From positions 799,613 to 863,612 of the forward strand of contig CP064957.1 of assembly GCA_016699045.1 (NCBI GenBank): DNA of 64,000 bases, read 5' to 3'. Below the pieces are notes generated by a model. The model saw nothing but the letters and a program-made list of their open reading frames with translations, had not been told where the DNA came from and made no database searches. The stretch is from a bacterium (GTDB lineage: Bacteria > Babelota > Babeliae > Babelales > RVW-14). Of the stretch, positions 2,066 to 46,035 are shown piece by piece (the first letter of the stretch is position 1; each line of letters begins with the position of its first letter). A program made the position numbers and the translations under genes.

Positions 2066-2932
2066 ATGAAAATTGGTCGTTATGTTGTTGAAGTTCCTGG
2101 TCCTGAAAAAATATGGTTTCCCAAAAGCAAAATTACCAAGGGTGATATTGTTGCTTATTATCGTGATATCAGTCCATTTATGCTGTCCTTTACCAAAAAT
2201 CGACTGTTAACAATGCATCGTTTTCCTGGTGGCATTGATCAAGAAGGTTTTTATCAAAAAAATGTTGGTGACTATTTTCCTGATTGGTTACTTTCTAAAA
2301 AAATAAAAAATAAAGAAGCTGGTTACACAACGTACGCTGTTTGTAATAATGCCGCTTCGCTGGCATATATTGCAACGCAGGGCTGCATTACGCCGCACGT
2401 GTGGCTAAGCAAAATTGATAAACTCAATTATCCCGATCGTATGATTTTTGATTTAGATCCTGCCGGTACTAATGTTGCGGCAGTGCGTTGGGCGGCCAAG
2501 CAACTGCATGATCTTTTAACTGAGCTTGGCATTCCATCATTTTTAATGACAACCGGCTCGCGCGGCTTTCACGTTGTGGTTCCGCTTAAGCGCTTAGCAA
2601 CGTTTGAGGCGGTGCGTGCTTATGCGCGCGATGTCGCAACTATTTTGGTGGAGCGCTATCCAAGCAAATTAACCATCAATCCGCGCAAAGAGGCTCGCAC
2701 TCATAAAATTTTAATTGATTGTATGCGCAATTCGTATGGTGCTACGGCAGTCGCGCCGTATGCCGTGCGTGCGATTGAAAAGGCGCCAGTGGCCGCACCA
2801 ATTTTTTGGGAAGAGCTGGCACGTATGACGCCGCAGCGATTTACGATAAACAATATTTTTGAACGCTTGACGCACGAAGAAAATCCTTGGCACGATTTTA
2901 CTAAAGTTGCTACGCGCTTAAAAGATTTGTAA
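2066..2932 (+). CDS. stand-alone LigD-type primase-polymerase (AEP/PrimPol) domain protein
   Basis: KIWFPKSKITKGDIVAYYRDISPFMLSFTKNRLLTMHRFPGG, MIFDLDP and TTGSRGFHVVVPL match the polymerase domain of NHEJ ligase D. The ATG at 2066 lies after the terminator, so the TTG at 2024 is unlikely to be the start. Confidence 0.8.
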   Translation: MKIGRYVVEVPGPEKIWFPKSKITKGDIVAYYRDISPFMLSFTKNRLLTMHRFPGGIDQEGFYQKNVGDYFPDWLLSKKIKNKEAGYTTYAVCNNAASLAYIATQGCITPHVWLSKIDKLNYPDRMIFDLDPAGTNVAAVRWAAKQLHDLLTELGIPSFLMTTGSRGFHVVVPLKRLATFEAVRAYARDVATILVERYPSKLTINPRKEARTHKILIDCMRNSYGATAVAPYAVRAIEKAPVAAPIFWEELARMTPQRFTINNIFERLTHEENPWHDFTKVATRLKDL

Positions 2933-2937
2933 TAATA

Positions 2938-3621
2938 ATGAGAGAAGAAAGGATTTGTGTGAACAAAAAATTTGTAGGATTATTTTTGGCAGCTCTTGCG
3001 TTTTCTACCAATGCTATGCCAATGGCGCCAGCAACATGCAAACTATTTGAGGCAGCTAAAAAGGGCGATGTTGTATTGGCAATAGAACTTATCAAACAAG
3101 ATGCCGATGTTAATGCTTTCAATGTCAATAATAAAACACTCCTTCATTTTGCTGCTCAAAATGGTTATGACGAGTTGACAGCATTGCTTTTAAAAAATGG
3201 TGCAGAAGTTAGTCCTGTCGATGTGTCAGGTTTTACGCCATTGCATTATGCTGCTTGCGAAGGCCATACCGAATGCGTTAGGGCGCTAACGGTAAAAAAA
3301 GCTGACGTTAATGCCATTGCCAACAATGGAGCTACACCGCTCAACCTTGCGATTACCGATGGTTATAAAGAGTGTGTAGAAATTTTACTTGCTGCGGGGG
3401 CAAATCCCATACTCGCTCCATGCGCAGGCACGTACAAATACCTTATGCCAGAAGAAATAGCACGCAAACGCGGTCATGAAGACATCGGAGATATTCTCCT
3501 CAAAGCGTGCGAGAAATGGGAAAAAGAAATCGAAGACACGTTGGACAAAGATTCTGAGGAAGAATTAAATGCAAGCATATGGACGGCATGCTTCAATTGT
3601 TGTGGCTGTAGTGTTCAATAA
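2938..3621 (+). CDS. ankyrin-repeat protein with N-terminal signal peptide and C-terminal Cys cluster/CaaX box
   Basis: Repeated TPLH(Y/F)AA..G....V..LL..GA(D/E)VN ankyrin units. N-terminal hydrophobic segment KKFVGLFLAALAFSTNA. C-terminus CFNCCGCSVQ. Confidence 0.85.
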   Translation: MREERICVNKKFVGLFLAALAFSTNAMPMAPATCKLFEAAKKGDVVLAIELIKQDADVNAFNVNNKTLLHFAAQNGYDELTALLLKNGAEVSPVDVSGFTPLHYAACEGHTECVRALTVKKADVNAIANNGATPLNLAITDGYKECVEILLAAGANPILAPCAGTYKYLMPEEIARKRGHEDIGDILLKACEKWEKEIEDTLDKDSEEELNASIWTACFNCCGCSVQ

Positions 3622-3645
3622 CGTTATCATGAAAAATTTATAACA

Positions 3646-4185
3646 TTATTTTTTTACAAAATGCTTCTGAATAATGTCGTGCGAATAATCGATCGAGTTT
3701 ATTTCATTAAACCCTGTGCCAACAACAAGATCGTGCGGAAGCGCAATGCCTTCGTTGAGTGTAATGGGAATAATAGTAATAATTGATTCATCAATTAAAT
3801 GAGCATCAAGAAATTGTTGTACCAGCGAAGCGCCGCCTTCAAGCCAAATTTTACAACCAGGTTTTTCGCCTGCTATCTTTTTAATAAAATCAGTAACGCT
3901 TTCATTAACAAACGTTATGTCTGCCTGCGCTGGTTGTTCGGTGCTTTCGGTAAAAATGTACGAATGTTTTCCTGCATTTGGCCAGTCGCCAAACGTCAGC
4001 ATTTGTTCATACGTCTTTCTGCCCATCACAATTAAATCAAGAGAAGCAAAAAAATCGTGATAACCACAATCCATGTCAGGTGGCAGATCGGCAGCAAAAG
4101 AATTTAACCAATCAACACTACCGTTTTCGTCGGCGATAAATCCATCGCGGCTTATCGCGATATACAAAATGACTTGTGGCTTCAT
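3646..4185 (-). CDS. dihydrofolate reductase family protein (RibD C-terminal domain-like)
   Basis: The N-terminus VILYIAISRDGFIADENGSVDWL and a size of about 180 aa are typical of the RibD_C/DHFR-like family. Confidence 0.65.
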   Translation of the reverse strand: MKPQVILYIAISRDGFIADENGSVDWLNSFAADLPPDMDCGYHDFFASLDLIVMGRKTYEQMLTFGDWPNAGKHSYIFTESTEQPAQADITFVNESVTDFIKKIAGEKPGCKIWLEGGASLVQQFLDAHLIDESIITIIPITLNEGIALPHDLVVGTGFNEINSIDYSHDIIQKHFVKK

Positions 4186-4259
4186 GAGCGACCTTTGTAG
4201 AAAACTAAAGACTAATAATATGGCAATAAAGTATCATAAATAATTGAAATTTAACAGGA

Positions 4260-7130
4260 CTAGAACACTTCGCCAAGCGTTAAATACCAGGCATAAGCGC
4301 TATCGCCCGGCAATCGCGTTTTCCATTTCCAGCCGATATCAAAACGAATGGCGCCGATGGGTGTTTTGTAGCGCAGCCCACAACCAGAGCCAGGAAACCA
4401 GGTACCTGAGCCAGGAATACCGGATTGACTCAAAACGCCAACGTCTTGGAAAATAACCATGCCGAGTTTATTAATAATTGGAAAGCGTAATTCAAGATTG
4501 AGGTTGATCATCGAGCTCCCGCCTTGAATGGTGTATTCTTGCTGTATGACGCCATTTTCGTCAATAAACTCGCTCATGCCCAGTGGCGGCAACGCATCTT
4601 TTTCATAACCGCGGACCGAGTAAGGGCCGCCCAAATAAAAGCGTTCGATGGGCATAATCTGGTTAAATTTGCGTCTGAAAATATGACCAAAGCGTAATCG
4701 AAAGCTGCCGATAACGTCGTTGTGTAATGCTTTAAAATATGATTGCTCGGCCATTAAGCGTACCGAAAAACCGGCTGCAAGTTCAGGGACCATTAATTTC
4801 ATTGAAAGAAAACTAAACTGGCCTTTGGTGGTGTTAATGCGGTCATCGAGTGTATCGATAATTAAACTTGGTTCAAGGAAAAAATAGGGCAAGGTGCGAT
4901 CAATATAGTCCGGATCTAAGTTAAGGTTGCCGCGCACTCTGCTCGTACGCATCCACTCATTACCAACCGTAATACCCCAATAATAATTTTCGCGATATTC
5001 ATCGCTCAGGCCTGCCAAAAAGCCACTCTGTACCGCTTCGTATGCCGAGTCGCTTGAACCAACGGCGATGGGTTGTGTGTATTTGTTTGCGTAACCTTTG
5101 AGTTTGCCCATGACGGGAAATCCTAATAACGCTGGTTGTTGGTAATGTGCATCAAGTGTTCGCTCAAAGCGCGTAATTTCTGTATTAATGGTAAAATTGT
5201 CGGCACGATTGGTTGGATTTTTTATGACTAAGGATGCGCCTAATTTTGCTGTTGATTGTTTTTTAAACATAAAATTTTTGCTTGTTAAAAAATAGCCAGC
5301 GCGCAAACGCAATTCAATTGGTTCGTCGTCAACCAGTGTTATGATCAGCGGTTTTTTGCTTTTGGTATTTGATAAATGGTATGGCTGAATTTGTATTTGT
5401 TTAAAAATATCAAGGCTGCGTAATTTTTTACGCGTGAGTTCTAATTTTTCTTTATTCCACAATTCGCCCTCATGGCAACGTACTTCGCGCATGATGCGTT
5501 TAAATGGTAATTTGGTGGTGCCACGTAAATAAACTTTTCCAAAGCGTACGCGTGGTCCTGGTTCAATATTCCAGGTGGTAAAAACATCAATGCCATGTGG
5601 TGCAATTTTACTGGTCAAAATCGGGCTGACACGAGCGTACCAATAACTATGTTGTTGAAAATAATTGAGTAAATAGACTTTTTGTTCATGAAGCCAGTGA
5701 ATATTGAAAGGGACCAAATTATGCGTTGTACTTTTTTGTGGGTTGGTAAACACTGAGTGAATTGCTAAGTGCTGAAAATTTTTGAAATCAAAGCCATGAT
5801 AAAAATGCTGAGCACCTTTTTTGATGAGTACTAAAATAGCGTATGAATTGTTAGGTTTTTTAATGAAGCGCGTTTCAACAATTTCAAAATTCCAAAATCC
5901 TTGAGAAAAATAATAATCTTTTACGCTTGCAAGTGCTGCATCAAGGCGGCTTTGATCAAAGGTTTTTTTGCTCAGAAGCTCATCAAAAAAGTGTAAGCAC
6001 TGTTTTTCATGAGTCCCAGTCTCAACATTTTTACAAACGATTTTCTTAATGAAGGTTGGGTTTCCTTCTTGAATGGTAAAATCATAATCATATTTTTGTG
6101 TTGGAGTGTAAGAAATAGTCGTTCCCCAGTACCCTTTTTTGTAATATTCATGTAGCAGTTGTTCTGCAATAATATCGGGAGAAAAAAGCCATTCGGGCAA
6201 GTCAACGCCAATAATATCTTCCTTGATGGCATGATTTGAAAAAAGATGATTGCCACTAAAATTCAGAAGTTTTCTTTTTCCAAGATCAATAAAAAATACA
6301 ATATTAACCGTATAATTCCTATGATTAATCAGTCGCTTCATGCTTAAGTGGCTGTCGAAGTACCCTTTTTCTTGCAAATAGGTTCGTATCTTTTTTGCCT
6401 GTTTTTCGATGTGTTTTTTTTCGTAATTGGTATTTAATAAGTTTTTTTTAAAGCGCTTTAGTTTTTCTTTGAGTGTATTTGGTGCTTGTGTATCACTTTG
6501 TTCTTCATGAGTTTTAATATCAAAAGAGACGTCTTCAATGTGATAGTGTTTGCCTGGTTTTGTTTTAATGATAACCGTTATAGTTTTATTTTTTTTTTCA
6601 TACACAAATTCATCGGTTATGAGATGATCAAAAAAGCCTTCGGCTTTGAATTTTGCTTTAATGGCGCTAAGTGATTCTTCGTGTAAAGAGATATTAAAAA
6701 TGTTGCCCGGTTGCTGGATGTACAAATTGGTATACTCTTGTTGGCCAAAAAATACTCCTTTAAAGGTCATGCGCCTTAAAATCCAATTACTTTTGAGCGT
6801 GAATGTGAGATGTTGGCCATTTTCATAATCATGGCAATTGATATCAACTGATTGCAGGCGTTCTTTGCGAATAAGGCTTTTAAACGCCTGATTAACTTGT
6901 TTGACAGAAATAAAGGTGTTGGGAACGAGTTCAACCAGATGATTAAATTCTTCTGGGCTAATCTCGATGTCTGACTGATATGAAATTTTTGTGACGTACA
7001 GCGTTGTGGTTTCTTCAGGATAGTATTCATGAAAATTGCCGCCATAACACTGTTTTACATGAGCGAATAGTGACGGCGCCAATGTGCTGGCAATAAAAAA
7101 ACAGATGATAAATAATAAGCGCTTGAGCAC
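4260..7130 (-). CDS. large Omp85-family outer-membrane protein (BamA/TamA-like paralog, 956 aa)
   Basis: Signal peptide, a long POTRA-like N-terminal region, the barrel motif ERFYLGGPYSVRGYE, and a C-terminal aromatic residue (...LTLGEVF). Confidence 0.75.
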   Translation of the reverse strand: MLKRLLFIICFFIASTLAPSLFAHVKQCYGGNFHEYYPEETTTLYVTKISYQSDIEISPEEFNHLVELVPNTFISVKQVNQAFKSLIRKERLQSVDINCHDYENGQHLTFTLKSNWILRRMTFKGVFFGQQEYTNLYIQQPGNIFNISLHEESLSAIKAKFKAEGFFDHLITDEFVYEKKNKTITVIIKTKPGKHYHIEDVSFDIKTHEEQSDTQAPNTLKEKLKRFKKNLLNTNYEKKHIEKQAKKIRTYLQEKGYFDSHLSMKRLINHRNYTVNIVFFIDLGKRKLLNFSGNHLFSNHAIKEDIIGVDLPEWLFSPDIIAEQLLHEYYKKGYWGTTISYTPTQKYDYDFTIQEGNPTFIKKIVCKNVETGTHEKQCLHFFDELLSKKTFDQSRLDAALASVKDYYFSQGFWNFEIVETRFIKKPNNSYAILVLIKKGAQHFYHGFDFKNFQHLAIHSVFTNPQKSTTHNLVPFNIHWLHEQKVYLLNYFQQHSYWYARVSPILTSKIAPHGIDVFTTWNIEPGPRVRFGKVYLRGTTKLPFKRIMREVRCHEGELWNKEKLELTRKKLRSLDIFKQIQIQPYHLSNTKSKKPLIITLVDDEPIELRLRAGYFLTSKNFMFKKQSTAKLGASLVIKNPTNRADNFTINTEITRFERTLDAHYQQPALLGFPVMGKLKGYANKYTQPIAVGSSDSAYEAVQSGFLAGLSDEYRENYYWGITVGNEWMRTSRVRGNLNLDPDYIDRTLPYFFLEPSLIIDTLDDRINTTKGQFSFLSMKLMVPELAAGFSVRLMAEQSYFKALHNDVIGSFRLRFGHIFRRKFNQIMPIERFYLGGPYSVRGYEKDALPPLGMSEFIDENGVIQQEYTIQGGSSMINLNLELRFPIINKLGMVIFQDVGVLSQSGIPGSGTWFPGSGCGLRYKTPIGAIRFDIGWKWKTRLPGDSAYAWYLTLGEVF

Positions 7131-8907: not shown

Positions 8908-9879
8908 TTAGCTGCTTATTTTTAAGATCAGTAAAAATGACACGATCATGGCATAAATAACTGATGATTCAATAAATGTGCTGGTCAGCAAGGTGAGCTT
9001 GATCATCAAGGGATAGCTGTTTGGCTCTTGAGCAATTTGTTCACAACTCTTTGATGCTGAAAGGCCAATGCCAGCTCCGGTGCCCAGAGCTCCAAGTCCC
9101 AAGGTAACTGCGGCTGTTAAAATAACAGGTCCTTGTGGCAAAAACGTAGTGCCCAGCGTTGGGACATAAAACAGAAACATGAGTGCAAGGAGCAAGCAAA
9201 AAATTATAGGTGTTTCAATAAATGCCTGCCCAAATAGCGCGAAAGGAAAAATTTTGTTGTAGGCATTTTTGTTAACGCTGACGGCTGTACAGGCCGCTTG
9301 GCAAAAAAGTGCTTGCCCGATTGAAGGCCCAATGCTGGCAAGGCCGATGACTAAGCCCGCGCCTAAATTTTTAACACCATCAATAACGACCATATTGTCG
9401 TTGATGGTTGTTTTGATAAGTAATGAAATAATAAAAGAAAAGAGAACAGGGGCTTCAATAATTGATTGACATAACAACATGAGCGTTATAATTTTTTGAG
9501 CAAAAAAAGGTTGGCGGCCAATTCCTTGCGTGGCAGCACTTACTACAAAACTTGAAGCAATACTGGTTGAAAGAGCGGCCAAACCAATGGCTAGTCCAAT
9601 GCCGAGTTCTGATAAGCTAAGTTCTAATGTTATTTCTTTTGGGGCGCCTAGTAGCATCAAAAGTGACATAACAAGTGCAATCACAATGCCGCTTTCAATG
9701 AGCGCAAGGCCGATAAGCATTGCTTTAAACGTGTTGTCTCGGCCGAGTTGTTGGCGTTCCATTGCTTGTAAGGCGTTCATGCCTGCCAAGCCTTGTCCCA
9801 ATCCACCGCCAATAGTTGCAAGGCCTAGTGCCAAAATAGCCGAAAAATAATGAAGAAAATTAGCAAACATCGTGATCAC
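8908..9879 (-). CDS. atpE: F-type ATPase c subunit, four hairpins fused in one 323-aa polypeptide
   Basis: Four tandem units of about 80 aa, each with a Gly-rich helix 1 (e.g. GLATIGGGLGQGLAG). Loops resemble RQP (ERQQ, GRQPF, NKNAY, QEPNS). Helix 2 carries a Glu in each unit (LIESG, IIEAP, FIETP, FIESS). The gene lies directly downstream of atpB; an alternative ATG is at 9870. Confidence 0.8.
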   Translation of the reverse strand: MITMFANFLHYFSAILALGLATIGGGLGQGLAGMNALQAMERQQLGRDNTFKAMLIGLALIESGIVIALVMSLLMLLGAPKEITLELSLSELGIGLAIGLAALSTSIASSFVVSAATQGIGRQPFFAQKIITLMLLCQSIIEAPVLFSFIISLLIKTTINDNMVVIDGVKNLGAGLVIGLASIGPSIGQALFCQAACTAVSVNKNAYNKIFPFALFGQAFIETPIIFCLLLALMFLFYVPTLGTTFLPQGPVILTAAVTLGLGALGTGAGIGLSASKSCEQIAQEPNSYPLMIKLTLLTSTFIESSVIYAMIVSFLLILKISS

Positions 9880-10726
9880 TTTCTTCTGATACTAAAGGTT
9901 GTGGTTCATCGTGGTCTGTTACGCCCATCGATAAGTAAGTTGCTGTTAGCATAGTTAAAACGAATGCTTGGATTAGTCCTTCAAAAAAGCCAAAAAACAT
10001 TTGAATGAAAACCAAGGCAAAAAGCATGATATGAAATATTTTGTGCAGGCGTGCAAAATAAGTAATGTGTTTGAGTACTGGAAATCGATATGTAATGATG
10101 CTTAACAAGATCATTACGAGCGTGAGCCCAAGAAAATGAAATTTAAGGGGGCCTCCTACAAATTGCATAATCATGCTAAAAATAATGCTGCCACCCAAAA
10201 TATTACCAAAAAGTCGAAAAGACATTGAGGCAATTTTGGCAAGCTCACCAATAACATTGATTGGTGCTAAAAAGAAAATTGGTTGTATAAATTCTTTTAA
10301 GTAATGTTTCATGCCTTTAAATTTAATTTTGTACCATTGTACGTAGGTAAAACTGGTAAGCCCCAAAGCGACGGTTGTATTTAGATCATTCGTTGATTCA
10401 TCCAAAAAAGGGATAAGGCTGGTGGCGCTACAAAAAAGAGTAAATAGAAAAAGTGACGTAATAAAAGCAAAGTGGTTATAAATCAATTTACCAAATGATT
10501 CTTTGGTTAAATCAATAAAAAAGCCAATGACCGTTTCGTAGGCAACCGAGATGATGGTTGGGTTACGTTTTAAGAGATATTTGCCCGCTATTGCTAAAAC
10601 AAAGAGCATCCCCATGGCAAACCAGGTGTACATTAATGTGTCTAAATGTAGGTGCCAAAAGGGGCCATTGAGACCAAATACCTTGAAAGGTGCAATTTCT
10701 TTATACTTAAAAAGATTAATATTCAT
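9860..10726 (-). CDS. atpB: F-type ATPase subunit a
   Basis: Polytopic membrane protein with the subunit-a signature SFRLFGNILGGSII, which includes the essential Arg. The ATG at 10726 overlaps the stop of the upstream small ORF (ATGA). Confidence 0.85.
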   Translation of the reverse strand: MNINLFKYKEIAPFKVFGLNGPFWHLHLDTLMYTWFAMGMLFVLAIAGKYLLKRNPTIISVAYETVIGFFIDLTKESFGKLIYNHFAFITSLFLFTLFCSATSLIPFLDESTNDLNTTVALGLTSFTYVQWYKIKFKGMKHYLKEFIQPIFFLAPINVIGELAKIASMSFRLFGNILGGSIIFSMIMQFVGGPLKFHFLGLTLVMILLSIITYRFPVLKHITYFARLHKIFHIMLFALVFIQMFFGFFEGLIQAFVLTMLTATYLSMGVTDHDEPQPLVSEESDHDVC

Positions 10727-11013
10727 GAATGCGCCTGTGTTTTTTTGAGCGTATACGACCAAAAGCTAATACCAAAACCAACAAGGAAGAGCGGCAAGGT
10801 AACATGTAGCCAAAAATACAATAATGATACGGTGATGATAAGTATAAAAAACCTTCCAACAAACCATAACAAAGGTTGTACAAAAAAGCGAGAAGGTGGA
10901 GTTTCAGGGCTTGTTGAAAATGCCTTTTGCGTTTGAGTAACAAAAAAATAGGCATACGCAAAGCCTACCAAGAGACCAGATACGATTGAGATGAATAGCG
11001 TTGTTGTTGTCAT
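10723..11013 (-). CDS. small membrane protein, AtpI/AtpQ-like (putative)
   Basis: About 96 aa from the ATG at 11013, with 3 predicted TM helices. It is translationally coupled to atpB by an ATGA overlap. The call rests on position, not on sequence motifs. Confidence 0.45.
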   Translation of the reverse strand: MTTTTLFISIVSGLLVGFAYAYFFVTQTQKAFSTSPETPPSRFFVQPLLWFVGRFFILIITVSLLYFWLHVTLPLFLVGFGISFWSYTLKKTQAHS

Positions 11014-11888: not shown

Positions 11889-13118
11889 TTAAACGTTGTT
11901 GAGAAGTAACATTTCTTTCAAAACGCTGTCTGGGTTGAGCGAAATAGAATCGATTCCTTGATCAACTAAAAACTGTGCAAACTCTGGATAATCTGAAGGA
12001 GCTTGGCCACAAATCCCAATTTTCTTGTTAGCTTTTTTAGCGCCTTGAATTGCCATAGTCAGCATCATTTTGACCGCGGCATTGCGCTCATCAAACAGTG
12101 AGGCAACAAGGCCTGAGTCGCGATCAACGCCTAGTGTCATTTGTGTTAAATCGTTTGATCCAATCGAAAAGCCATCAAAAAGTTTTGCAAATTCATCGAT
12201 CAGTAAAACGTTTGAAGGAATTTCAACCATCATATAAACTTCAAGGCCATTCTGTCCTTGGATTAAATCGTGTCGATTCATTTCTTGTAGTGCCTTGTGC
12301 GCTTCCTCAATCGTACGTACAAATGGCAACATCAGCTTAACGTTGGTCAGGCCCATTTCAAGCCGTATTTTTTTCATAGCAGCACATTCCAGCGCAAAGC
12401 CTTCCTGGTATTTTTCATGATAATAACGTGAAGCGCCACGAAATCCCAACATTGGGTTTTCTTCTTCTGGTTCAAAGTCTTTTCCAGCAATCAATTTGCG
12501 GTACTCATTGCTTTTAAAATCTGACATTCTGATAATAACTGGTTTTGGGTAAAAAGCAGCAGCAATGGTGCCCGCTTCTTGTGCTAGTTTGTCGATAAAA
12601 TATTGTTTTTTATCAGTGTAACCAGCGGTCAATTGCGCAATGAGTGTACGATCTTTTTCGTCAGAAATTTTGTCGGGATGAATAAGTGCCATCGGATGGA
12701 TTTGCAGCGCGTTATTAATAATAAATTCCAAGCGAGCCAAGCCCACGCCGGCATTTGGAATATTAACCAGGTTAAATACTTCGTCAGGGTTGCCTACGTT
12801 CATCATCAAACTTACTGGCGGATTTTTAAGATGGCTTGTTTCTATTCGTTTAATTTCGAAAGGAAAGTGGCCTTGGTAGACAGACCCAACTTCGCCATTG
12901 GCACAATCAAGCGTAATTTCTTGGCCGGTTGTAATTTTGGCAGTTGCATCTTCGGCGCCTACAATGGCGGGGATGCCCAGTTCGCGACTAATGATAGCGG
13001 CATGACACGTTCTGCCTCCACGATTAGTGACAATGCCAGCAGCAATTTTCATGATTGGTTCCCAATCAGGGTCGGTCATGTCGGTAACCAAAATATTGCC
13101 CGGCTGCACTTCGTGCAT
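11889..13118 (-). CDS. ppsA: phosphoenolpyruvate synthase, C-terminal fragment (phosphohistidine swivel + PEP-utilising TIM barrel)
   Basis: VTDMTDPDWEPIMKIAAGIVTNRGGRTCHAAIISRELGIPAIVG and IGSNDLTQ motifs. It is contiguous with the upstream fragment once a 1-nt frame shift is allowed. Confidence 0.9.
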   Translation of the reverse strand: MHEVQPGNILVTDMTDPDWEPIMKIAAGIVTNRGGRTCHAAIISRELGIPAIVGAEDATAKITTGQEITLDCANGEVGSVYQGHFPFEIKRIETSHLKNPPVSLMMNVGNPDEVFNLVNIPNAGVGLARLEFIINNALQIHPMALIHPDKISDEKDRTLIAQLTAGYTDKKQYFIDKLAQEAGTIAAAFYPKPVIIRMSDFKSNEYRKLIAGKDFEPEEENPMLGFRGASRYYHEKYQEGFALECAAMKKIRLEMGLTNVKLMLPFVRTIEEAHKALQEMNRHDLIQGQNGLEVYMMVEIPSNVLLIDEFAKLFDGFSIGSNDLTQMTLGVDRDSGLVASLFDERNAAVKMMLTMAIQGAKKANKKIGICGQAPSDYPEFAQFLVDQGIDSISLNPDSVLKEMLLLNNV

Positions 13119-13129
13119 TGCTTTAATAT

Positions 13130-14278
13130 TTAAATAACGCGTGCTTTACCCACCACAATTTTGCGCCCCACGCTTTTGCCGTGCACAATAATGTTTTCTT
13201 TAGAAATCGTTGATTTATCCAGTACATATTCTTCAAAAAAAGATTGCTGTTGTTTTTGAGAATAGACCGTTTCTGGGCGCGCTTGAACAATGTACAGTTT
13301 TCCGTCAAGGCCGTCTTTTGCCCACTCGATATCCATGGGTGACCACATGCCGCGCTCTTGAGAATAATGATCTTCAATGATAGCTGCTTGGCGCGCCAAG
13401 AAAAGAATTTCATCATCATTCAAACAAAATTGTACGCGGTCTTTGGTTTCAACTTCAACTTTTTTTGTTGCTTGGCCATGGTCGGCATAGATAAGTTTTT
13501 GTTGTTTGCTGCCAATGCGTTTTTTTAGAATTGGTTTAAAACCTTGCGCAAGTGTTGGTTTATGGACATAAAATTCATCGGGATTGATGCTGCCTTGTAC
13601 CACCATTTCGCCAAGGCCATATGAGCCGCTGATGTAAATAACATCTCTAAAGCCGCTCTCAGTATCAAGGGTAAAAATAACACCCGCACTTGCCAAATCT
13701 GAGCGTATCATTTTTTGTACACCAATTGAAAGAGCAACGTCCATGTGATCAAAATTATGGTCAATGCGGTACGACAACGCGCGGTCGGTAAATAACGATG
13801 CGTAAGCATTGCTGCATGCCGTCATGAGTTCTTGCTCGCTGCGGACATTCAAATAAGTTTCTTGCTGGCCAGCAAAAGAGGTTGCTGGCAAGTCTTCTGC
13901 GGTGGCAGATGAACGTACGGCAACATCACAGGGTGCGGGGTAGCGCTTGGTTAGGTTTTGATAAGCTTCTTTAATGGCTTGGGTAAGATCGGCAGGAATT
14001 GGTGCTTGCGCAATGAGCGTTCTAATTTGTTGGCCAAGGGCTACAAAAGCTTCAAGATTATTTTTATCAAGTTGTGCGAGTAATTTTTGTAATGGTTCTT
14101 CAAGATTGTTGGCTGATAAAAAATGACGATATGCTTGGGCAGTGATAGCAAACCCGCCGGGTACCATGACGCCTTTGGTGGTAAGATTTTGGATCATTTC
14201 GCCAAGCGAAGCGTTTTTCCCGCCAACACTATTGATGTCTTTTATACTAATCTCTTCGAATAATTTTATAAATTTCAT
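13130..14278 (-). CDS. ppsA: phosphoenolpyruvate synthase, N-terminal fragment (ATP-grasp/nucleotide-binding domain)
   Basis: VGGKNASLGEM, VAVRSSATAEDLP and IEWAKDG are PpsA N-terminal signatures. The fragment stops 12 nt before the next fragment. Confidence 0.9.
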   Translation of the reverse strand: MKFIKLFEEISIKDINSVGGKNASLGEMIQNLTTKGVMVPGGFAITAQAYRHFLSANNLEEPLQKLLAQLDKNNLEAFVALGQQIRTLIAQAPIPADLTQAIKEAYQNLTKRYPAPCDVAVRSSATAEDLPATSFAGQQETYLNVRSEQELMTACSNAYASLFTDRALSYRIDHNFDHMDVALSIGVQKMIRSDLASAGVIFTLDTESGFRDVIYISGSYGLGEMVVQGSINPDEFYVHKPTLAQGFKPILKKRIGSKQQKLIYADHGQATKKVEVETKDRVQFCLNDDEILFLARQAAIIEDHYSQERGMWSPMDIEWAKDGLDGKLYIVQARPETVYSQKQQQSFFEEYVLDKSTISKENIIVHGKSVGRKIVVGKARVI

Positions 14279-14382
14279 AAACTAATATCCCTGGCATAGG
14301 TTTTTGGGTACCGCACCTGATTCATAAACTCGTGGCACTAGAGTAGACGATTGAGATTTTTTTGAAAATAAAAAGGATAATT

Positions 14383-15597
14383 ATGAGGCAAGAGGTTGGC
14401 AAAAACTTAGTTTTTGTTTTGTTCGATGGTATTAAAAATTCGGTTTTTCAAAGCCAAGTTTTGGCTCCCTTGATGGGGATGCTTGATGCCCATTCAACCA
14501 TTCAGATTACGCTTGTTTCATTTGAGCAGAAACGCCCATCGGACAAAGATCTCATCTCAATAATTCCTGCACATGAACGATTGCATTGTGTAATCAGCCG
14601 TAGAACGCCCTTTGTTGGCAAAAACGGTTTAAAAATTGCTTCCTACCAGTTTGGTAAATTATTAGCAATTACACAACCTGACGAGCTGATAGCCCGCGGT
14701 CCTTTAGCAGGTTTTGTATTACTGCATGCCATGCGGCAGTTAGTGGGTTGGCAAAAAAGGCATGGTAATGCGAGTGTGGCTATGCCAAAAATAACGATAC
14801 AAGCGCGTGGTTTATGTGCCGAAGAATATCGGTATGATCGTTCATTTAAAAGGAAATCATTACTTAAATCATGGTTGTATAAAATTGTTTATGGGCGCCT
14901 TGAAAGCATTGAGCGCGATGTTTTTGGTACCAAGTTTGGATTGAAAGATGTTGTTGTTGAAGCGGTGAGTCCGGCGCTTAAAGATTATCTGATTGAGCAA
15001 TTTCAAGCAGACCCGCGCTTGATTACTATCGCTTCAAAAGATATTCCACAAACACTTGCTCAGCCAACCGTTGTGCAATGGCGGGCTGAGGTGCGCAGCC
15101 AGCTTGGCATACCCAGTGATGCGATTGTGTATTGTTACAGTGGTTCTTTTAAGCCGTGGCAGTGTGCGCCGCAGACGGTTCAATTTTTCGTTGAGCGACT
15201 GCGCGTTGAACCAAAAAGTTTCTTATTGGTACTTTCCGGCGATCATGAAATTTTTGCGCAGGAATTAGTAAAAGCGCAGGTGCCAACGGATCACTTTCGT
15301 GTGTTATCGGTAAAAGCTGCAGAGTTGTATCGCTACTTAGCGGCAGCTGATTTTGGCTTGTTGTTTAGAGAGCGTGATGTGATTAATTGGGTTTCGCGTC
15401 CCACGAAAATGCTTGAGTACCAGGCGGTTGGGTTGCCAGTGTTGCATAATAATACCATTGCAATATTAGAAAAAGATGAGCGAAATGTATCGTCGCTTCA
15501 GCTTTGCAAGCGCTGCCAGATATCAAGCAACATATCAAAAGAAAGTTGCTGTGCGCGCAGTTGCAGTGTGCCACTTTCTAATTGTGTAAGCGGATAG
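14383..15597 (+). CDS. putative glycosyltransferase (GT-B fold); 3' end uncertain
   Basis: AGGA RBS lies before the ATG at 14383. The C-terminal half has a GT-B-like region (RPTKMLEYQAVGLPVL). The last ~33 codons are Cys/Ser-rich and lie antisense to rsmA. Confidence 0.45.
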   Translation: MRQEVGKNLVFVLFDGIKNSVFQSQVLAPLMGMLDAHSTIQITLVSFEQKRPSDKDLISIIPAHERLHCVISRRTPFVGKNGLKIASYQFGKLLAITQPDELIARGPLAGFVLLHAMRQLVGWQKRHGNASVAMPKITIQARGLCAEEYRYDRSFKRKSLLKSWLYKIVYGRLESIERDVFGTKFGLKDVVVEAVSPALKDYLIEQFQADPRLITIASKDIPQTLAQPTVVQWRAEVRSQLGIPSDAIVYCYSGSFKPWQCAPQTVQFFVERLRVEPKSFLLVLSGDHEIFAQELVKAQVPTDHFRVLSVKAAELYRYLAAADFGLLFRERDVINWVSRPTKMLEYQAVGLPVLHNNTIAILEKDERNVSSLQLCKRCQISSNISKESCCARSCSVPLSNCVSG

Positions 15598-16307: not shown

Positions 16308-16443
16308 TAATCTTTATTTTCTGTTAAAAAATCGGTTAAGGTAGGAAAAGGTCAATTATGCTTTAATTTAAGCATAATTTTGGGCCAAAGGCAAAAATTG
16401 ATCTTTTTGGGGTAATTTGGGGTTTTTCTTAACCGGGGCGGGG

Positions 16444-18138
16444 ATGAAGAATTTTCTATGGTTATTTTTATTGAGCTTATTTGTGAAATGGCCGGTTGTT
16501 GCTGCTACCCCGGCTGATTATGCAACGTTGACCGATTGGTCAGTTGCTTGTTTTACCAAACTACCAGAATATGACCATTTGAGTGGGTATGATATTATTA
16601 ATGGTGAGAGTCTATCAGAAGTTTACAAAACAACGCTGACTGCTCAACAATTCAAAGATAAGATGGAAAAATTTGCAAAGCGTAGCAAGCAAAAGCTTCA
16701 AGTCAAAGATAATTGGGTGAGTGCTGATGCGCCACAAGATTCATTGTTTGATATTCAAGCAAAGCATGATAATGAATTTGAGCATGCATTTATCCAAAGA
16801 TTAGAGATTCCAGCAAATAGCGAAGTTTGTTTTATGGGCGATTATCACGGTAGCGTGCATTCACTGTTGCGCAATCTATGGCGGTTGAGTGTTGATGGAT
16901 ATCTTGACGACAATTTTAAATTTAAAAAAGATAATTTTTATCTGATCTTTTTGGGCGATTTTGTTGACCGCGGCCGCTATGGGGCTGAAGTGTGGTACTC
17001 ACTGATGCAACTTAAGCTTGCCAATTGGGACAAAGTTCATTTGCTGCGTGGCAATCATGAGACAAGTTTGGCAAGTAAAAAATATGGCTTTTTAGGGTGG
17101 AGTGCTATCAAGGGTAAAGGAAAGTTAGAGGGCGAAGTTTGTATTAAATTTGAAACTGATATTGAAAAAGAACGATCTGAGCAGGGAGAAATTGGTAAAA
17201 AAATTTTAAATCTCTATCACTTTTTGCCCTTTGCAATCTTTTTGGGTGTTAAAGATAAAAATGAATTTGTACAATGTTGCCATGCTGGCATAGCCGTGAA
17301 TGATGGAGACACAGATCTTTTTGATGTCAAGCCTTTCATTAAAGAAAATAAAAAATTTCAAAAAATTTCTAAATTTCAAGAAGGCTTTCAGTGGAGTGAT
17401 TTTTCTCAGGATAAAGATGACTCAGACTTTGCTTCGGGATGTCGTGGGACGAAATATGGCATAGAAGCTACGGTTGCTGGGGGGCAAGAATACTTAAATC
17501 AAAATAATCTCAAAGCTTTTTTTCGAGGCCATCAAGATCAGTGTTATGGTTTTAAAATGTTTTTTGAAAATGAGGCTCAGAAGAATGCGGTTATTGAAGG
17601 CAAGAAAGAGCGATTTGGGGTTTATCCGTTTGGTCCCTATCATTGGAAATATATTGTTTCTGACTCTCATCAAAGAGAAGCAGATGGCTTTTTAGTTAAA
17701 GATTATAAACCAATTTTTACGTTTACTTCAGCATCAGAAGGCCAATCGGTGCCCTTCGATTGTTATGGCATTGTTATGGTTGGTAATGGACTCTATGATA
17801 ACTGGCGCTTAAAAATCTATGAAACAGGTTTGCCAAATGAGTTAGTTTCAAAAATTCAGGATGCGTCGATATCAAATCGTAATAAAAAATATGTTGCTAT
17901 TGGTTCAATCACAAGCGATTTAAGAGGTGCGATTGCTGTTGAAGACAAACAGCTTAAAATTAATTGGCTTAGCGTGCCATTGAAAGAAGAAGATTTAAGA
18001 TCAAAATTGGGTGATATGTTACCATCAGCTCCTAAACCGAAAAAATTAGAAATAACTTTGCAGGAAGCTCTTAAGGCCCTCAAAACAAAATTTGCAGTAT
18101 TGGCAGAGCAATTGGCGAGATTAGCACCAGGGCATTAA
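16444..18138 (+). CDS. PPP-family Ser/Thr protein phosphatase (eukaryote-like), signal peptide, C-terminal amphipathic helix
   Basis: GDYHG, GDFVDRGRYG, LLRGNHE, CCHAG and FFRGHQ form the complete PPP metallophosphatase motif set. N-terminus MKNFLWLFLLSLFVKWPVVAA. Confidence 0.85.
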   Translation: MKNFLWLFLLSLFVKWPVVAATPADYATLTDWSVACFTKLPEYDHLSGYDIINGESLSEVYKTTLTAQQFKDKMEKFAKRSKQKLQVKDNWVSADAPQDSLFDIQAKHDNEFEHAFIQRLEIPANSEVCFMGDYHGSVHSLLRNLWRLSVDGYLDDNFKFKKDNFYLIFLGDFVDRGRYGAEVWYSLMQLKLANWDKVHLLRGNHETSLASKKYGFLGWSAIKGKGKLEGEVCIKFETDIEKERSEQGEIGKKILNLYHFLPFAIFLGVKDKNEFVQCCHAGIAVNDGDTDLFDVKPFIKENKKFQKISKFQEGFQWSDFSQDKDDSDFASGCRGTKYGIEATVAGGQEYLNQNNLKAFFRGHQDQCYGFKMFFENEAQKNAVIEGKKERFGVYPFGPYHWKYIVSDSHQREADGFLVKDYKPIFTFTSASEGQSVPFDCYGIVMVGNGLYDNWRLKIYETGLPNELVSKIQDASISNRNKKYVAIGSITSDLRGAIAVEDKQLKINWLSVPLKEEDLRSKLGDMLPSAPKPKKLEITLQEALKALKTKFAVLAEQLARLAPGH

Positions 18139-18169
18139 TGTGAGCAAAATATATAAAATAAGGGCATTT

Positions 18170-18198
18170 TTGACTTTGTGCGGGTATTGAGATACCAT
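18170..18198 (+). promoter_or_regulatory. putative sigma70 promoter of ssrA
   Basis: TTGACT (18170-18175), a 17-nt spacer, then TACCAT (18193-18198), about 30 nt upstream of the mature tmRNA 5' end. Confidence 0.4.
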
Positions 18199-18228
18199 AT
18201 AAACAATTATCTTTGAAAAGCAAAGTAC

Positions 18229-18625
18229 GGGGGCGTAACGGTCTCGACGTGGTATTTTGTGCTTTGAGAGCATGCCGAGTTTTGTATGGGGGCTCGTTAA
18301 AAAACATTCAAAAAACAATAAATGCAAACGATATGTTTGTTACTAATAATACAGCAAGCTATTATAATGGCGCTGCTGTATGTGCCTAATTCGTTAGGGT
18401 TAGTCTAGAGGATTGAGCGTGTCTATCAGTAAGATCCACTTGTATTAAAAAGATAGAACCTTTGCGTAAGATTTTTTAGTTGGGTAGCGCAATTGTATCA
18501 CTAAACTGGCTTTTACATTTAACTATGCCCCAGAGGAGATGTAAGAGTACAATCAGGGGAGAAGCATGTGGTGCTTAAAGTTCCGAGTGTTGCGGACATG
18601 GGTTCGACTCCCATCGCCTCCACCA
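18229..18625 (+). ncRNA. ssrA: tmRNA (transfer-messenger RNA)
   Basis: 5' GGGGGCGUAACGGUCUCGACG pairs with 3' ...GGACAUGGGUUCGACUCCCAUCGCCUCCACCA, giving an acceptor stem with a G3:U pair, a T-arm and CCA. A conserved GCAUGCCGAG box is present. The tag ORF runs GCA AAC GAT ... TAA (18324-18389). Confidence 0.92.
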
Positions 18626-18867
18626 TACTTCGCCAAGGCTTCGTATGGCAAGCCATTTTCTTTAACGGATTGATAATTATAAAAGATTATGTCTCGTTAG
18701 AGCAATGCGAAGTATGCCCTTCGAAGCTAATTGCGTAGCAATGCGAAGTAGGGCCCCGCTTTTCATTTCCGCAGGAAATGCCTGGCAAGCCATTTTCTTA
18801 GATGATTAATCAATATAAAGTATGCCCTTCAAAGCTCTGATAAGAGCGAAGTAGGGCTCCACTTTTT
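18626..18867. repeat. repeat-rich non-coding spacer downstream of ssrA
   Basis: The 17-nt exact repeat TGGCAAGCCATTTTCTT occurs at 18646 and 18783. AAGTATGCCCTTC occurs at 18710 and 18818. GCGAAGTAGGGC occurs at 18743 and 18846. GCAATGCGAAGTA occurs at 18702 and 18738. The inverse copy CATACTTCGC abuts the tmRNA 3' end. Confidence 0.7.
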
Positions 18868-19530
18868 CTAACTAATTTTCTTTTCCCAAATCGAGAGTGT
18901 GTTGTCTGTTTCCATGCCAGTATCAACTTGTGTCCACGCCAGTGCTATTTTCATATCAGGCGCCAATCCATAACCAAAGTATCGACACATAGCATCCAGT
19001 GGTTGATAACCTTCTGGTCTGAGAGGATGATCTTCTGGTCGGTCTACCATCATAAAAATGGTTGAGCGAAATCCTTTTGCACGAGCATCGTCTTCTACAA
19101 TTTTTAAGCTTTCATAAAAACGTTTTACAATGCCTTTTTTACGATATTCCGGATACAGCATAACTTCGCCGATGTATAAATAATCATCGAGATTGAGACC
19201 TTTTTTGATGAATGGTGCTTTTATTTCCTCAAGTTCTTCTACGAGTGGGATTGCATTTGCAAAACCTACAACTTTGTCATTATCAAATACCAGCAAAATA
19301 ATAGCGTTTGGCGATTTAAAATAAGTTTCTAAATACTCGACTTCATACTCAACCGTGCCTTGGTACAGATACGGAAATTCTTTAAAAAGAAAGCGAATGT
19401 TAATAATGTCGCTGGAATATTGTCGAGCTTCAGGTCCTGAAAATGTTCGAATTTCGAGTGCTGCACTAAAAACATTTTCTGAGATAATTAATTGCGCAAG
19501 TAAAGCAAAAGAGAGTAGTAATTTCTTCAC
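18868..19530 (-). CDS. GNAT-family N-acetyltransferase with signal peptide
   Basis: The acetyl-CoA motif A region is YPEYRKKGIVKRFYE. N-terminus MKKLLLSFALLAQLIIS. GTG start 12 nt after the stop of the upstream USP gene. Confidence 0.65.
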   Translation of the reverse strand: MKKLLLSFALLAQLIISENVFSAALEIRTFSGPEARQYSSDIINIRFLFKEFPYLYQGTVEYEVEYLETYFKSPNAIILLVFDNDKVVGFANAIPLVEELEEIKAPFIKKGLNLDDYLYIGEVMLYPEYRKKGIVKRFYESLKIVEDDARAKGFRSTIFMMVDRPEDHPLRPEGYQPLDAMCRYFGYGLAPDMKIALAWTQVDTGMETDNTLSIWEKKIS

Positions 19531-19542
19531 AATATTTCTTTC

Positions 19543-20922
19543 CTATTTTAACGAACTTAACTTTGTTGCCAGCTCGGCCAATTTAAATTTGAGGGCTTGA
19601 AGGGCAGTTGTCAAATTTTCCATTTGTTGGTTTGGGCTTTCTGTTTTTTGATAAAAAAGAAGGTAGGGTGTGAATATTCCTGTAGCTTTTTTTTCAAGAT
19701 TTCCATCGTGGGGATATATGCCTGCCGAAAGAACCTTATTGATTTCATTTGATTCAAATTTTGTTGTTGTTTCATCATCGCAATACCACCAGTGATTATC
19801 TGCTTGGTTATAAACAAAAGCCGTATAATGTCCACCACCAAAAGGCCCTTGATGCAAAACAAAGCTGATAAGTTTGTAGTATACAGGCTCTGTTATTTGA
19901 TTTGAAAAATAGTTACTTTTAAGAATGAGATAATTGTTAAGAGGTACAGGATTGTAGATTTTTGTCGTGATATCTTGAATCATATCGTAGGCAAAGCGAT
20001 TCAATTGAACGATAAGAATTTCTGGCATTGGGTTGTTTGCGTCAAGTAAAATACCCTTGGTTGCATCTACTTTTGCGTTGCATGCTTGGCAGAACCACTG
20101 ATTATCGCCCGTCATATTTTCTTGTTGAAAATAGTAATCAAGTAAGAATTCCATTGGCATAGTAGTTGAAGATTTTTCAGGTAGTGGTTGAGAAAAATTG
20201 AGTATTAGTTTACGACCTTGCTCTGTTTTTTCTGTTTTATGTGATTTATTGGCTTGAGTAATGTTTTTGTGTTGAATAGTATCTTTAGTTTCAAAACTTA
20301 ACATTTTTTTAACAGAGTTGTTTTTTTTATCAACCGTGATTAGTGAGTCGATAAGCGGCATAAGAAACTCATCGCTATCTTGTTGATTTTCAAAAAAAGG
20401 TATGAGATTGTTATAAGTATGAAGATTTGTGTACAGATTTTTTTGATCTTTTGTAAGCTTTGTTGTGCCTGGAGCAAGTTGGATTGGTGGTATCTCTTTG
20501 AGTTCGTAGGCTTCACCTCGCAATCCTTGGATTATGGATGGCACTTGTAGTACTTCATTAAGAATGTTGGATTGCATTGCTCGGCACGTAATAAAGTCGC
20601 GAAACGTCTTGGCATCATCGGTAGTTAAAGCCTTTGGACTAGTAGTTATTAGCTTTTCTAAAAAATCTACATATTTTCCTGCTACCGTGTTTTCATTGCC
20701 CACCAAGGCATCTTTAAATGGTTGAGAAAAAAGATGTTGTGTTAGCGGCCGTATGTAGTACAAGGCTTGCATGGCAGCATTCATAAAACATGAGTTTCCC
20801 ATATAGTTATTAATACCAACCGGTGGTGATTTATAAAGCCTGTCCAACGTGGTTTTTGTTGTGCCAAACATTTGCGAAATAGTCACAACGTTGAGCATTA
20901 AGCCCAACAAAATCTTTTTCAT
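19543..20922 (-). CDS. ubiquitin-specific protease (peptidase C19/USP) family, eukaryote-like, with signal peptide
   Basis: Cys box GINNYMGNSCFMNAAMQALYY. His box VLHQGPFGGGHYTAFVY...WWYCDDETT. GGAG RBS. N-terminal hydrophobic signal sequence. Confidence 0.85.
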   Translation of the reverse strand: MKKILLGLMLNVVTISQMFGTTKTTLDRLYKSPPVGINNYMGNSCFMNAAMQALYYIRPLTQHLFSQPFKDALVGNENTVAGKYVDFLEKLITTSPKALTTDDAKTFRDFITCRAMQSNILNEVLQVPSIIQGLRGEAYELKEIPPIQLAPGTTKLTKDQKNLYTNLHTYNNLIPFFENQQDSDEFLMPLIDSLITVDKKNNSVKKMLSFETKDTIQHKNITQANKSHKTEKTEQGRKLILNFSQPLPEKSSTTMPMEFLLDYYFQQENMTGDNQWFCQACNAKVDATKGILLDANNPMPEILIVQLNRFAYDMIQDITTKIYNPVPLNNYLILKSNYFSNQITEPVYYKLISFVLHQGPFGGGHYTAFVYNQADNHWWYCDDETTTKFESNEINKVLSAGIYPHDGNLEKKATGIFTPYLLFYQKTESPNQQMENLTTALQALKFKLAELATKLSSLK

Positions 20923-29142: not shown

Positions 29143-29266
29143 GAACTTTCTCCTTGTGTAGCCAGAATGGTGTCTCATTTTTTTTATTAGTGATAGCATC
29201 ATTAGACAACTAGGAATTCATGATACAATGTGCATAAAAAAAAGCTATTATTTTTTCTTAACGTTC

Positions 29267-42153: not shown

Positions 42154-42768
42154 ATGTGCGTAATTAAAAAAGTATTATTTTTTCGGGCGGTCTTGGTAAG
42201 CGTATGGCTTACCGGGCTGCCCGTTTTTATTTTTGCTATTGATCCGTTTTCAAAAATTACGATCATCAGTCAGCAAGTGCGTTGCTATCAGGCGCCTGAT
42301 CAAAAAAAAGTTTTTGTGTGTGATTATGAAAAAGATGTTAAGGCAACCTTTGCAGACAACAGCGTGGTTACCGCCAACCTGTTGACGGTTTTGCTTGATA
42401 CAAAAAAAACGGCTACGGCTGATCAGCCGACCAACAATAAACTATCGTTGTTTAAATCAATTACGTTTCAACATAATGTTAAGGTTGTTCGTGAAAAAAA
42501 TATTGTCACGGCAGATAGAGCAGAAATGTTGTTGCACGATATGACGTGTCGCTTTTTTGGCAATGTTTGTGTTGAGCAAAACGATCAAAAAGTACCAATA
42601 GTTTTGAAGAGTAATGAAGCATTCTTGAATTTAAAAACTAATATTGTTACCTTCAGTGGCAGTCAGACAGAACCGGTCAGTACGATCATTAACCTTGAAA
42701 AACATGCGGAGGAATCGCGACAACGACGTGCAGGGCGTATACGAAAAAAACGATGCAAAAAAACATAA
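42154..42768 (+). CDS. putative LptA/LptC (OstA-like) family protein with polybasic C-terminus
   Basis: N-terminal TM/signal segment. Alternating beta-strand pattern with ADRAEMLLHDMTCRFFGNVCVEQ and AFLNLKTNIVTFSG resembles the OstA-like jellyroll. Assignment is by eye only. Confidence 0.35.
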   Translation: MCVIKKVLFFRAVLVSVWLTGLPVFIFAIDPFSKITIISQQVRCYQAPDQKKVFVCDYEKDVKATFADNSVVTANLLTVLLDTKKTATADQPTNNKLSLFKSITFQHNVKVVREKNIVTADRAEMLLHDMTCRFFGNVCVEQNDQKVPIVLKSNEAFLNLKTNIVTFSGSQTEPVSTIINLEKHAEESRQRRAGRIRKKRCKKT

Positions 42769-45496: not shown

Positions 45497-45997
45497 CTAT
45501 TCTGTTTCTATTTTCTGTGATGAAGAGCTAATTTCGTTTGGCGATATAGCACCGCTTTGAATTAATGCTTCAATACAGGCAGAATATTCGCCTCGTATTG
45601 CTAGCTGCAGTGGTGTCATGCCGTCTTGAGCCGTGATATTTGGGTTAGCATGTTGGCTGAGTAAATAATTTATTGCAGGTGCGTTGTTGTTATTTGCAGC
45701 ATAATGAAGCGCGGTCCAGCCATTCGTGTCTATCAAGTTAACATCGGCTCCACCTGCCACCAGCGCTTTCACAATCTCTAAACAGCTGCGTTTTGCTGCT
45801 GCGTGATGCAAAGGTGCCCATTCTGCTTCTGACAACGTATTAACATTGACCTTTCTACTTTGTATAAGTTCTAAAGCAGCCGGAATGCGATTTTCACTAA
45901 TAAAATACATGAGTGTTTCAGTTGTTCCAGCGTGCAGCGTTGAGCTGGTAGTTATATGACAAACGAGAAACAATAAACCTATAAATTTCTTGACCAT
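45497..45997 (-). CDS. ankyrin-repeat protein with signal peptide
   Basis: WAPLHHAAAKRSCLEIVKALVAGGADVN, GWTALHYAANNNNAPAINYLLSQHANPN and GMTPLQLA repeats. N-terminus MVKKFIGLLFLVCHITTSSTLHA. Confidence 0.85.
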   Translation of the reverse strand: MVKKFIGLLFLVCHITTSSTLHAGTTETLMYFISENRIPAALELIQSRKVNVNTLSEAEWAPLHHAAAKRSCLEIVKALVAGGADVNLIDTNGWTALHYAANNNNAPAINYLLSQHANPNITAQDGMTPLQLAIRGEYSACIEALIQSGAISPNEISSSSQKIETE

Positions 45998-46035
45998 GAT
46001 ATACCTTTGCATTTTTAATGATAAAGTGTGCGTTG

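Follow-up and report, generated by a model that had tools for sequence, protein, structure and literature searches.

The stretch of DNA analyzed here (the window, 64,000 nucleotides) carries a small gene for an ankyrin-repeat (ANK) protein, whose features are collected in Table 1 together with those of other genes considered below. An AAAGGA Shine-Dalgarno sequence lies at 2948-2953, 5 nt before the GTG at 2959, and the database copy of the protein (P0001) begins at this same GTG. An alternative start at the ATG at 2938 would give a plus-strand ORF at 2938-3621 and an ANK protein of 227 aa.

The protein ends in ...IWTACFNCCGCSVQ. It had been predicted from the sequence that this C-terminus combines a CaaX prenylation box with a cluster of further cysteines immediately upstream. 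We read the tail codon by codon, and both the residues, CFNCCGCSVQ, and their position at 3589-3618 proved exact. The reading showed TGC at 3589-3591 (Cys at -10 from the C-terminus), then TTC and AAT; TGT TGT at 3598-3603 (Cys -7 and Cys -6), then GGC; and TGT at 3607-3609 (Cys -4), then AGT, GTT and CAA, with a TAA stop at 3619-3621. The three additional cysteines directly upstream of the CaaX box are, accordingly, present at -6, -7 and -10. In the public wastewater runs of a single study, two contigs (X5, covering 3575-3726, and X3, covering 3603-3753) agreed with the window at every base of the tail and the stop codon, which rules out an assembly error.

Table 1. Positions of the ANK gene, its predicted parts, the variable segment around it and the putative effector genes of the window.
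Feature	Positions	Strand	Description and basis
Small ANK-protein gene	2959-3621	+	220 aa, GTG start; ORF list, sequence, Pfam
Predicted Sec signal peptide, MNKKFVGLFLAALAFSTNAMPMAPA	2959-3033	+	Hydrophobicity/charge heuristic, AXA sites, AF2
Ankyrin domain, with approximately four repeats and a degenerate capping one	3028-3507	+	Pfam, AF2
Acidic linker, CEKWEKEIEDTLDKDSEEELNASIWTA, with a putative hypervariable-region-like role	3508-3588	+	AF2 helix, confidence falling from 95 to 69
Upstream cluster C-F-N-C-C-G (Cys -10, -7 and -6)	3589-3606	+	Candidate S-acylation sites; sequence
CaaX box C-S-V-Q	3607-3618	+	Candidate farnesylation site, Cys at 3607-3609; sequence
RibD_C/DHFR-like gene	3646-4185	-	Convergent with the ANK gene
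Strain-variable 1.34-kb segment	2924-4263		ANK gene plus convergent RibD_C/DHFR-like gene; X1 contig
PPP-family phosphatase	16417-18138	+	GDYHG, GDFVDRG and GNHE motifs; signal-peptide-like N-terminus
GNAT acetyltransferase	18868-19530	-	Signal-peptide-like N-terminus
USP/UCH deubiquitinase	19543-20922	-	PF00443, 3e-32; signal-peptide-like N-terminus

Pfam analysis of the protein returned ANK families alone and no F-box: Ank_2 matched with E = 1e-38 and 132 bits (cut-off 27.3), Ank with 89.5 bits, and Ank_4 was also found. With Pfam matches above the gathering score and paired helices modeled by AF2 at a pLDDT above 90, it belongs among the ankyrin-repeat proteins. The AF2 model has a mean pLDDT of 87.7 and a confident solenoid over approximately residues 24-190, with values of 87-98 at residues 21-150 and 84-98 at residues 151-190. 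Confidence declines along the C-terminal helix (79, 69 and 51 per ten-residue block), and the last five residues are modeled as coil, the last four of them with a pLDDT below 50; the model thus predicts, at low confidence, that the C-terminus is exposed. No Pfam or NCBIfam model spans the tail, and no metal-binding or sorting domain was matched there.

The N-terminus of the protein is, by a hydrophobicity heuristic, a predicted Sec-type signal peptide, a feature absent from the original prediction. It has a Lys-Lys n-region, a hydrophobic core (maximum H10 of 2.62, with three K/R residues ahead of the core) and possible cleavage sites between TNA and M or between APA and T, and AF2 gave a pLDDT of ~53 over residues 1-20. 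We also considered whether the N-terminus might be that of a lipoprotein, and set this reading aside by inspection because PATC makes a poor lipobox.

Elsewhere in the window, the genes at 45497-46012 and 59591-60118 encode two small paralogs, likewise ANK proteins with signal peptides. Both begin KKF-G, as the ANK protein does, and both align with it over the ANK body and end where SEEELNASIWTACFNCCGCSVQ starts. These last 22 residues, which comprise the distal half of the linker and the tail, are an extension relative to both paralogs. Because the paralogs end at the start of this extension, the tail resembles an appended module, and it would represent a membrane-address module added to a generic ANK scaffold.

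To place the window in a lineage, we compared its BamA protein (26716-29202, 828 aa) with database sequences. It was 87% identical to a protein of a 'Candidatus Babeliales bacterium' and 47-61% identical to BamA proteins that were labelled Dependentiae, TM6 or Babeliales or were unnamed. By these BamA matches the lineage is Dependentiae (TM6/Babeliales), and they overrule the Chlamydiae, to which the R2c-type NrdB had pointed. The source contig measures 1.45 Mb, and the window DNA is present in wastewater and activated-sludge metagenomes. Dependentiae have been described as obligate intracellular parasites of protists; the intracellular lifestyle on which the original prediction depended is, thus, supported by BamA as to lineage and by the literature as to lifestyle. 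In Chromulinavorax destructans, signal peptides are found on 44% of CDS and on 78% of 98 ANK proteins, and the bacterium sheds vesicles in the food vacuole and afterwards lies in the host cytoplasm. In cultured Dependentiae, signal-peptide ANK proteins are considered to form the principal class of secreted effectors. The core genes of TM6 include components of Sec and of the T2SS, and no dedicated host-injection system is known for the phylum. The protein under study shares with the Sec-exported ANK effectors of Dependentiae its lineage, its predicted signal peptide and its ANK repeats.

Signal-peptide-like N-termini were found by the heuristic on ~20 of the 54 ORFs of the window, which fits the pattern of the phylum. 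The USP and the PPP phosphatase that had been reported to accompany the ANK gene were both located in the window, the former by its match to PF00443 and the latter by its PPP motifs. Together with the GNAT acetyltransferase they form a run of three genes for eukaryote-like enzymes at 16417-20922 that is likely a cluster of secreted effectors.

Some further genes of the window are recorded here as observations in their own right. NrdB (986-2008) was closest to the R2c protein of Chlamydia trachomatis (PDB 1syy, 1e-135) and, by eye, has Phe in place of the radical Tyr (HTDTFIY), which would mean a class Ic ribonucleotide reductase. At 8908-10762, an ATP synthase c subunit adjoins subunit a. It is 322 aa long and is matched four times by Pfam ATP-synt_C; judged by these matches, the c subunit is multiplied or fused, which is unusual for a bacterial F-type/N-type ATPase. 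A second Omp85-family protein (4260-7130, 956 aa) has POTRA domains and matches BamA/TamA below threshold, and is by these features a putative BamA paralog, the canonical BamA being that at 26716-29202. Two adjoining minus-strand ORFs of 382 and 409 aa at 11889-14278 resemble by eye the N- and C-halves of a PEP synthase/pyruvate-phosphate-dikinase-type enzyme, and may represent a split gene or a pseudogene.

The quality of the tail as a lipidation signal was assessed against published motifs. Two eukaryotic proteins have CSVQ as their CaaX box. One is Drosophila PRL (dPRL), which is shifted from the apical membrane to the cytosol and nucleus by a C173S change; the other is the long isoform of human Rab28 (Rab28L), where the box was termed a high-affinity farnesylation motif. 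In a yeast screen of all CXXX sequences, Q at X was a positive pattern, I, L, M or V at a2 could offset restrictive residues at X, and the restrictive residues were only D, E, K or R at a2 and K, P or R at X. Most CXXX sequences were accepted by FTase in this screen, and a match to the CXXX format therefore discriminates weakly. The ANK protein has Cys at -4, V at a2 and Q at X, and the last of these, being among the FTase-type residues (S, M, Q, A or C) and not L or F, points to FTase over GGTase-I for this tail. As far as sequence can tell, the view that the tail is a good prenylation signal was upheld, since CSVQ is identical to the dPRL and Rab28L boxes and fits the FTase rules.

Cysteines -6, -7 and -10 all lie within ~10 residues upstream of the candidate prenylated Cys, a spacing that fits dual lipidation. 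They are positioned much like the palmitoylated cysteines of H-Ras (-6 and -9) and RhoB (-5 and -8), whose tails are GCMSCKCVLS and CINCCKVL, respectively. The identical tetrapeptide is what the ANK protein shares with dPRL and Rab28L. However, its resemblance to the eukaryotic tails extends over ~10 residues, its body is made of ANK repeats rather than a GTPase or phosphatase, and its linker is acidic, not basic. Relative to eukaryotic dual-lipidated tails, the tail is, on this comparison, putatively a case of convergent motif mimicry, not homology.

An analogy had also been drawn with the lipidated ANK effectors of Legionella, and this held in part. Legionella pneumophila AnkB (Lpg2144/LegAU13) ends in CVLC and undergoes farnesylation in both macrophages and Dictyostelium; it is processed by host FTase, RCE1 and ICMT, and it depends on its Cys both to anchor at membranes and to function. 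The window protein is like AnkB in being a small ANK protein with a C-terminal CaaX box in an amoeba-associated intracellular bacterium. However, AnkB has an F-box, whereas the window protein has none and is related to it by generic ANK repeats alone. AnkB is injected by the Dot/Icm T4SS, whereas the window protein has a predicted Sec signal and comes from another phylum, and AnkB does not have the three extra upstream cysteines. NCBIfam models of Legionella Ank proteins scored at most 51 bits against cut-offs of at least 450, and these generic matches leave the protein outside the AnkB/LegAU13 family. What stands of the analogy is, then, an ANK protein with a CaaX tail; the F-box, the family relationship and the mode of export do not carry over. 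Delivery would be by Sec plus T2SS or vesicles, not by Dot/Icm injection.

In Salmonella, SifA is both prenylated and S-acylated, and several Legionella Pel proteins are prenylated. The likeness to SifA (CLCCFL) and the Pel proteins lies in a C-terminal Cys cluster, which in those effectors takes prenyl plus S-acyl groups, or multiple prenyl groups, from the host. SifA differs in having L at X and being geranylgeranylated, in its delivery by a T3SS and in its unrelated fold, whereas Q at X of the window protein predicts farnesylation. With other Dependentiae ANK proteins, e.g. those of C. destructans, the window protein shares the phylum, a signal peptide followed by few ANK repeats, and a presumed role as a secreted, host-manipulating protein; unlike it, the described signal-peptide ANK proteins of the phylum have no lipidation tail. 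The literature that we searched contained no link of CaaX with Dependentiae, TM6 or Babela. The ANK protein would act like AnkB and SifA while standing outside their families.

We then asked whether the gene and its tail are conserved. No ortholog of the ANK protein was found among 5.8 billion proteins, the best non-self match being 40% identical and confined to the ANK repeats. No contig encoding the protein was on record, and a scan of genome contigs returned an unrelated Ekhidna ANK gene alone. In a HMMER search of 1.84 billion representatives, the C-terminal 42 aa matched only themselves. Because no ortholog was found, purifying selection at Cys -4 is not demonstrable.

Comparison with metagenomic contigs showed that the locus varies among strains. 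One wastewater contig (X1) joins position 2923 to 4264 via 26 nt of filler, its flanks being 91-94% identical to the window. Since this contig skips 2924-4263, a related strain is without the ANK and RibD_C/DHFR-like genes, and the ANK gene is thus dispensable and possibly young. The flanks, which are the LigD primase-polymerase and Omp85 genes, are 91-94% identical versus ~100% elsewhere in the region, and this difference suggests a recombination hotspot. No direct or inverted repeats flank the indel, no hint of a mobile element was seen there, and promoter and terminator scans of the locus gave background levels. Because the runs that contain this DNA have either the identical tail (X3, X5) or no gene (X1), they provide no informative variants of the tail.

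The chance occurrence of such a tail was estimated from the composition of the window, in whose 54 long ORFs Cys makes up 1.34% of residues. At this frequency, any one protein has at least four Cys among its final 10 residues with a probability of 6e-6, so that ~0.008 such proteins are expected per 1300-protein genome; with the Cys content of the ANK protein itself, the probability is 1e-4. The original prediction had also proposed counting CaaX tails against expectation, and here the result went against it. Cys at -4 occurred in 3 of the 54 window ORFs, with the same count at -8 and at -12. We extended the count to 80 BamA-centred metagenome contigs, which yielded 793 ORFs (342 from close Dependentiae and 451 from more distant relatives). 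Cys was at -4 in 7 of the 342 close-relative ORFs versus 4.1 expected, which is within the range of other positions, and no CaaX enrichment was observed in the 54 window ORFs, the 342 close Dependentiae ORFs, the 451 distant ORFs or 119 ANK homologs. None of the seven ANK ORFs across all 80 loci had Cys at -4 or a Cys-rich tail, and none of the 119 nearest ANK homologs had a Cys-cluster tail.

One ORF from this set deserves separate mention. On a related Dependentiae contig whose BamA is 57% identical (L015, 12951-13781), a 276-aa orphan protein has a signal-peptide-like start and a linker that is very acidic, and its last residues are ...KFGQLCTVL. Its layout of signal peptide, acidic linker and CaaX matches that of the ANK protein. 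CTVL is a canonical CaaX box of the GGTase-I type, which gives the phylum another candidate substrate for prenylation by the host. Finding it on a related contig is a hint that such tails may have been used more than once.

Other cysteine-bearing C-termini were observed among these ORFs. In the window, the 204-aa orphan at 42154-42768 has a signal-peptide-like start, a polybasic stretch and Cys -4 (...RRAGRIRKKRCKKT); it is superficially K-Ras4B-like, and the Lys at a2 is restrictive for FTase. The weakly GT4-like protein at 14362-15597 (411 aa, without a signal peptide) has seven Cys in its last 30 residues (CKRCQISSNISKESCCARSCSVPLSNCVSG), a tail that may bind metal; it, too, has Cys at -4, ending in CVSG. 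On more distant BamA contigs, a DUF5122 beta-propeller protein with a signal-peptide-like start (L078, 11456-12973) ends in ...SATCGCCV, and another protein with such a start (L043, 18729-19865) has the Cys-rich end ...CSPCQTEQCNVCC. Cys-rich C-termini on exported proteins may, judging from these sequences, recur across these lineages.

Taken together, the CSVQ box, the Cys spacing, the intracellular lineage and the signal peptide make host farnesylation and S-acylation the best reading of the tail. We consider the chances about even that the gene encodes a small secreted ANK effector that is farnesylated and S-acylated by the host, a reading in which the domain order and the identity of the motif are observed and the biochemical steps are what we infer. 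The ANK protein would leave the bacterium by Sec and then by T2SS or outer-membrane vesicles to reach the host cytosol. The predicted Sec signal would send it to the periplasm first, and we assume by analogy that it could travel on to the host cytosol with its thiols still free. Host farnesyltransferase would then alkylate Cys -4. SVQ would probably be cut off by Rce1, because a2 is Val, and the new C-terminus would be methylated by ICMT. At least one of Cys -6, -7 and -10 would be palmitoylated by host DHHC acyltransferases as a 'second signal' of the Ras/RhoB type, and the resulting lipid anchor would attach the ANK domain to a membrane of the host, where the domain would bind some host protein.

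Other explanations of the tail were weighed against this one. The tail may have arisen by accident, with no selected function, on an accessory gene that is young and evolves fast; its short T/G-rich 3' extension, TGT TGT GGC TGT AGT GTT, would then read as Cys-rich, and place a Cys at -4, by chance. We regard this explanation as unlikely. In its favor, the gene lies within a 1.34-kb indel absent from a related strain, its tail is an orphan sequence, Cys -4 is no commoner than Cys at other terminal positions in the lineage, and elsewhere in the window Cys -4 occurs in a plainly non-signal context, e.g. in the CVSG of the glycosyltransferase-like protein. However, four Cys in 10 residues are very improbable, TRF detected no tandem repeat in the tail DNA, and the identity of CSVQ to two validated motifs goes beyond a mere CXXX match. 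The tail, furthermore, belongs to an ANK protein of the secreted type and follows a putatively flexible linker, and lipidation would occur in the host cytosol regardless of selection if the protein arrives there.

The protein might also remain on the bacterial side, in the periplasm or envelope, with the Cys cluster binding metal or making disulfides, for example to tether a partner, and with no host lipidation. The predicted Sec signal peptide, the signal-peptide-like starts of many of the nearest bacterial ANK homologs and the lack of a known dedicated injection system in Dependentiae are all in keeping with such a role, for which the self-protection ANK protein of Bdellovibrio is reportedly a periplasmic precedent. 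We nonetheless judge this rather improbable, given that cultured Dependentiae lie in the host cytoplasm and that their signal-peptide ANK proteins are seen as the main effectors. The tail, moreover, matches no metal-binding or sorting domain of Pfam or NCBIfam, and it conforms with striking specificity to the eukaryotic signal, reading C-x-C-x-x-x-COOH with Q at X and an aliphatic residue at a2. Very little weight falls to the remaining variants, in which the tail is S-acylated by the host alone or serves as a decoy substrate for host prenyltransferase instead of an anchor. Cys-rich clusters are typical S-acylation sites, and effectors that are palmitoylated without prenylation exist (Legionella GobX and LpdA; Salmonella SspH2 and SseI), but soluble proteins normally require a prior membrane-affinity signal, which the farnesylation box provides, and a single low-copy effector is improbable as a decoy for an enzyme.

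As parasites of protists, Dependentiae are widespread, and hardly any have been brought into culture. To our knowledge, no target or location has been assigned to their hundreds of signal-peptide ANK proteins. Lipidation tails are rare, and such a tail allows a location, the host membrane, to be predicted from sequence alone. The hypothesis of host lipidation is specific, yet it rests on one unconserved, strain-variable gene, and if it were refuted the tail would be an oddity on a dispensable gene. More generally, we propose tentatively, and with somewhat less than even confidence, that Dependentiae may deliver Sec-exported effectors to the protist cytosol and that some of these may be anchored to membranes by hijacked host lipidation, here by farnesylation and multiple S-acylation via a Ras/RhoB-like tail. 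If the hypothesis is true, mimicry of host prenylation substrates, known from Legionella and Salmonella, would also occur in a distant phylum, as the first CaaX mimicry outside Proteobacteria, and a protein that transits the periplasm could still be a prenylation substrate. It would also provide indirect proof that Sec-exported Dependentiae proteins reach the host cytosol, and would be reason enough to survey CaaX tails across the phylum as a rule for finding effectors.
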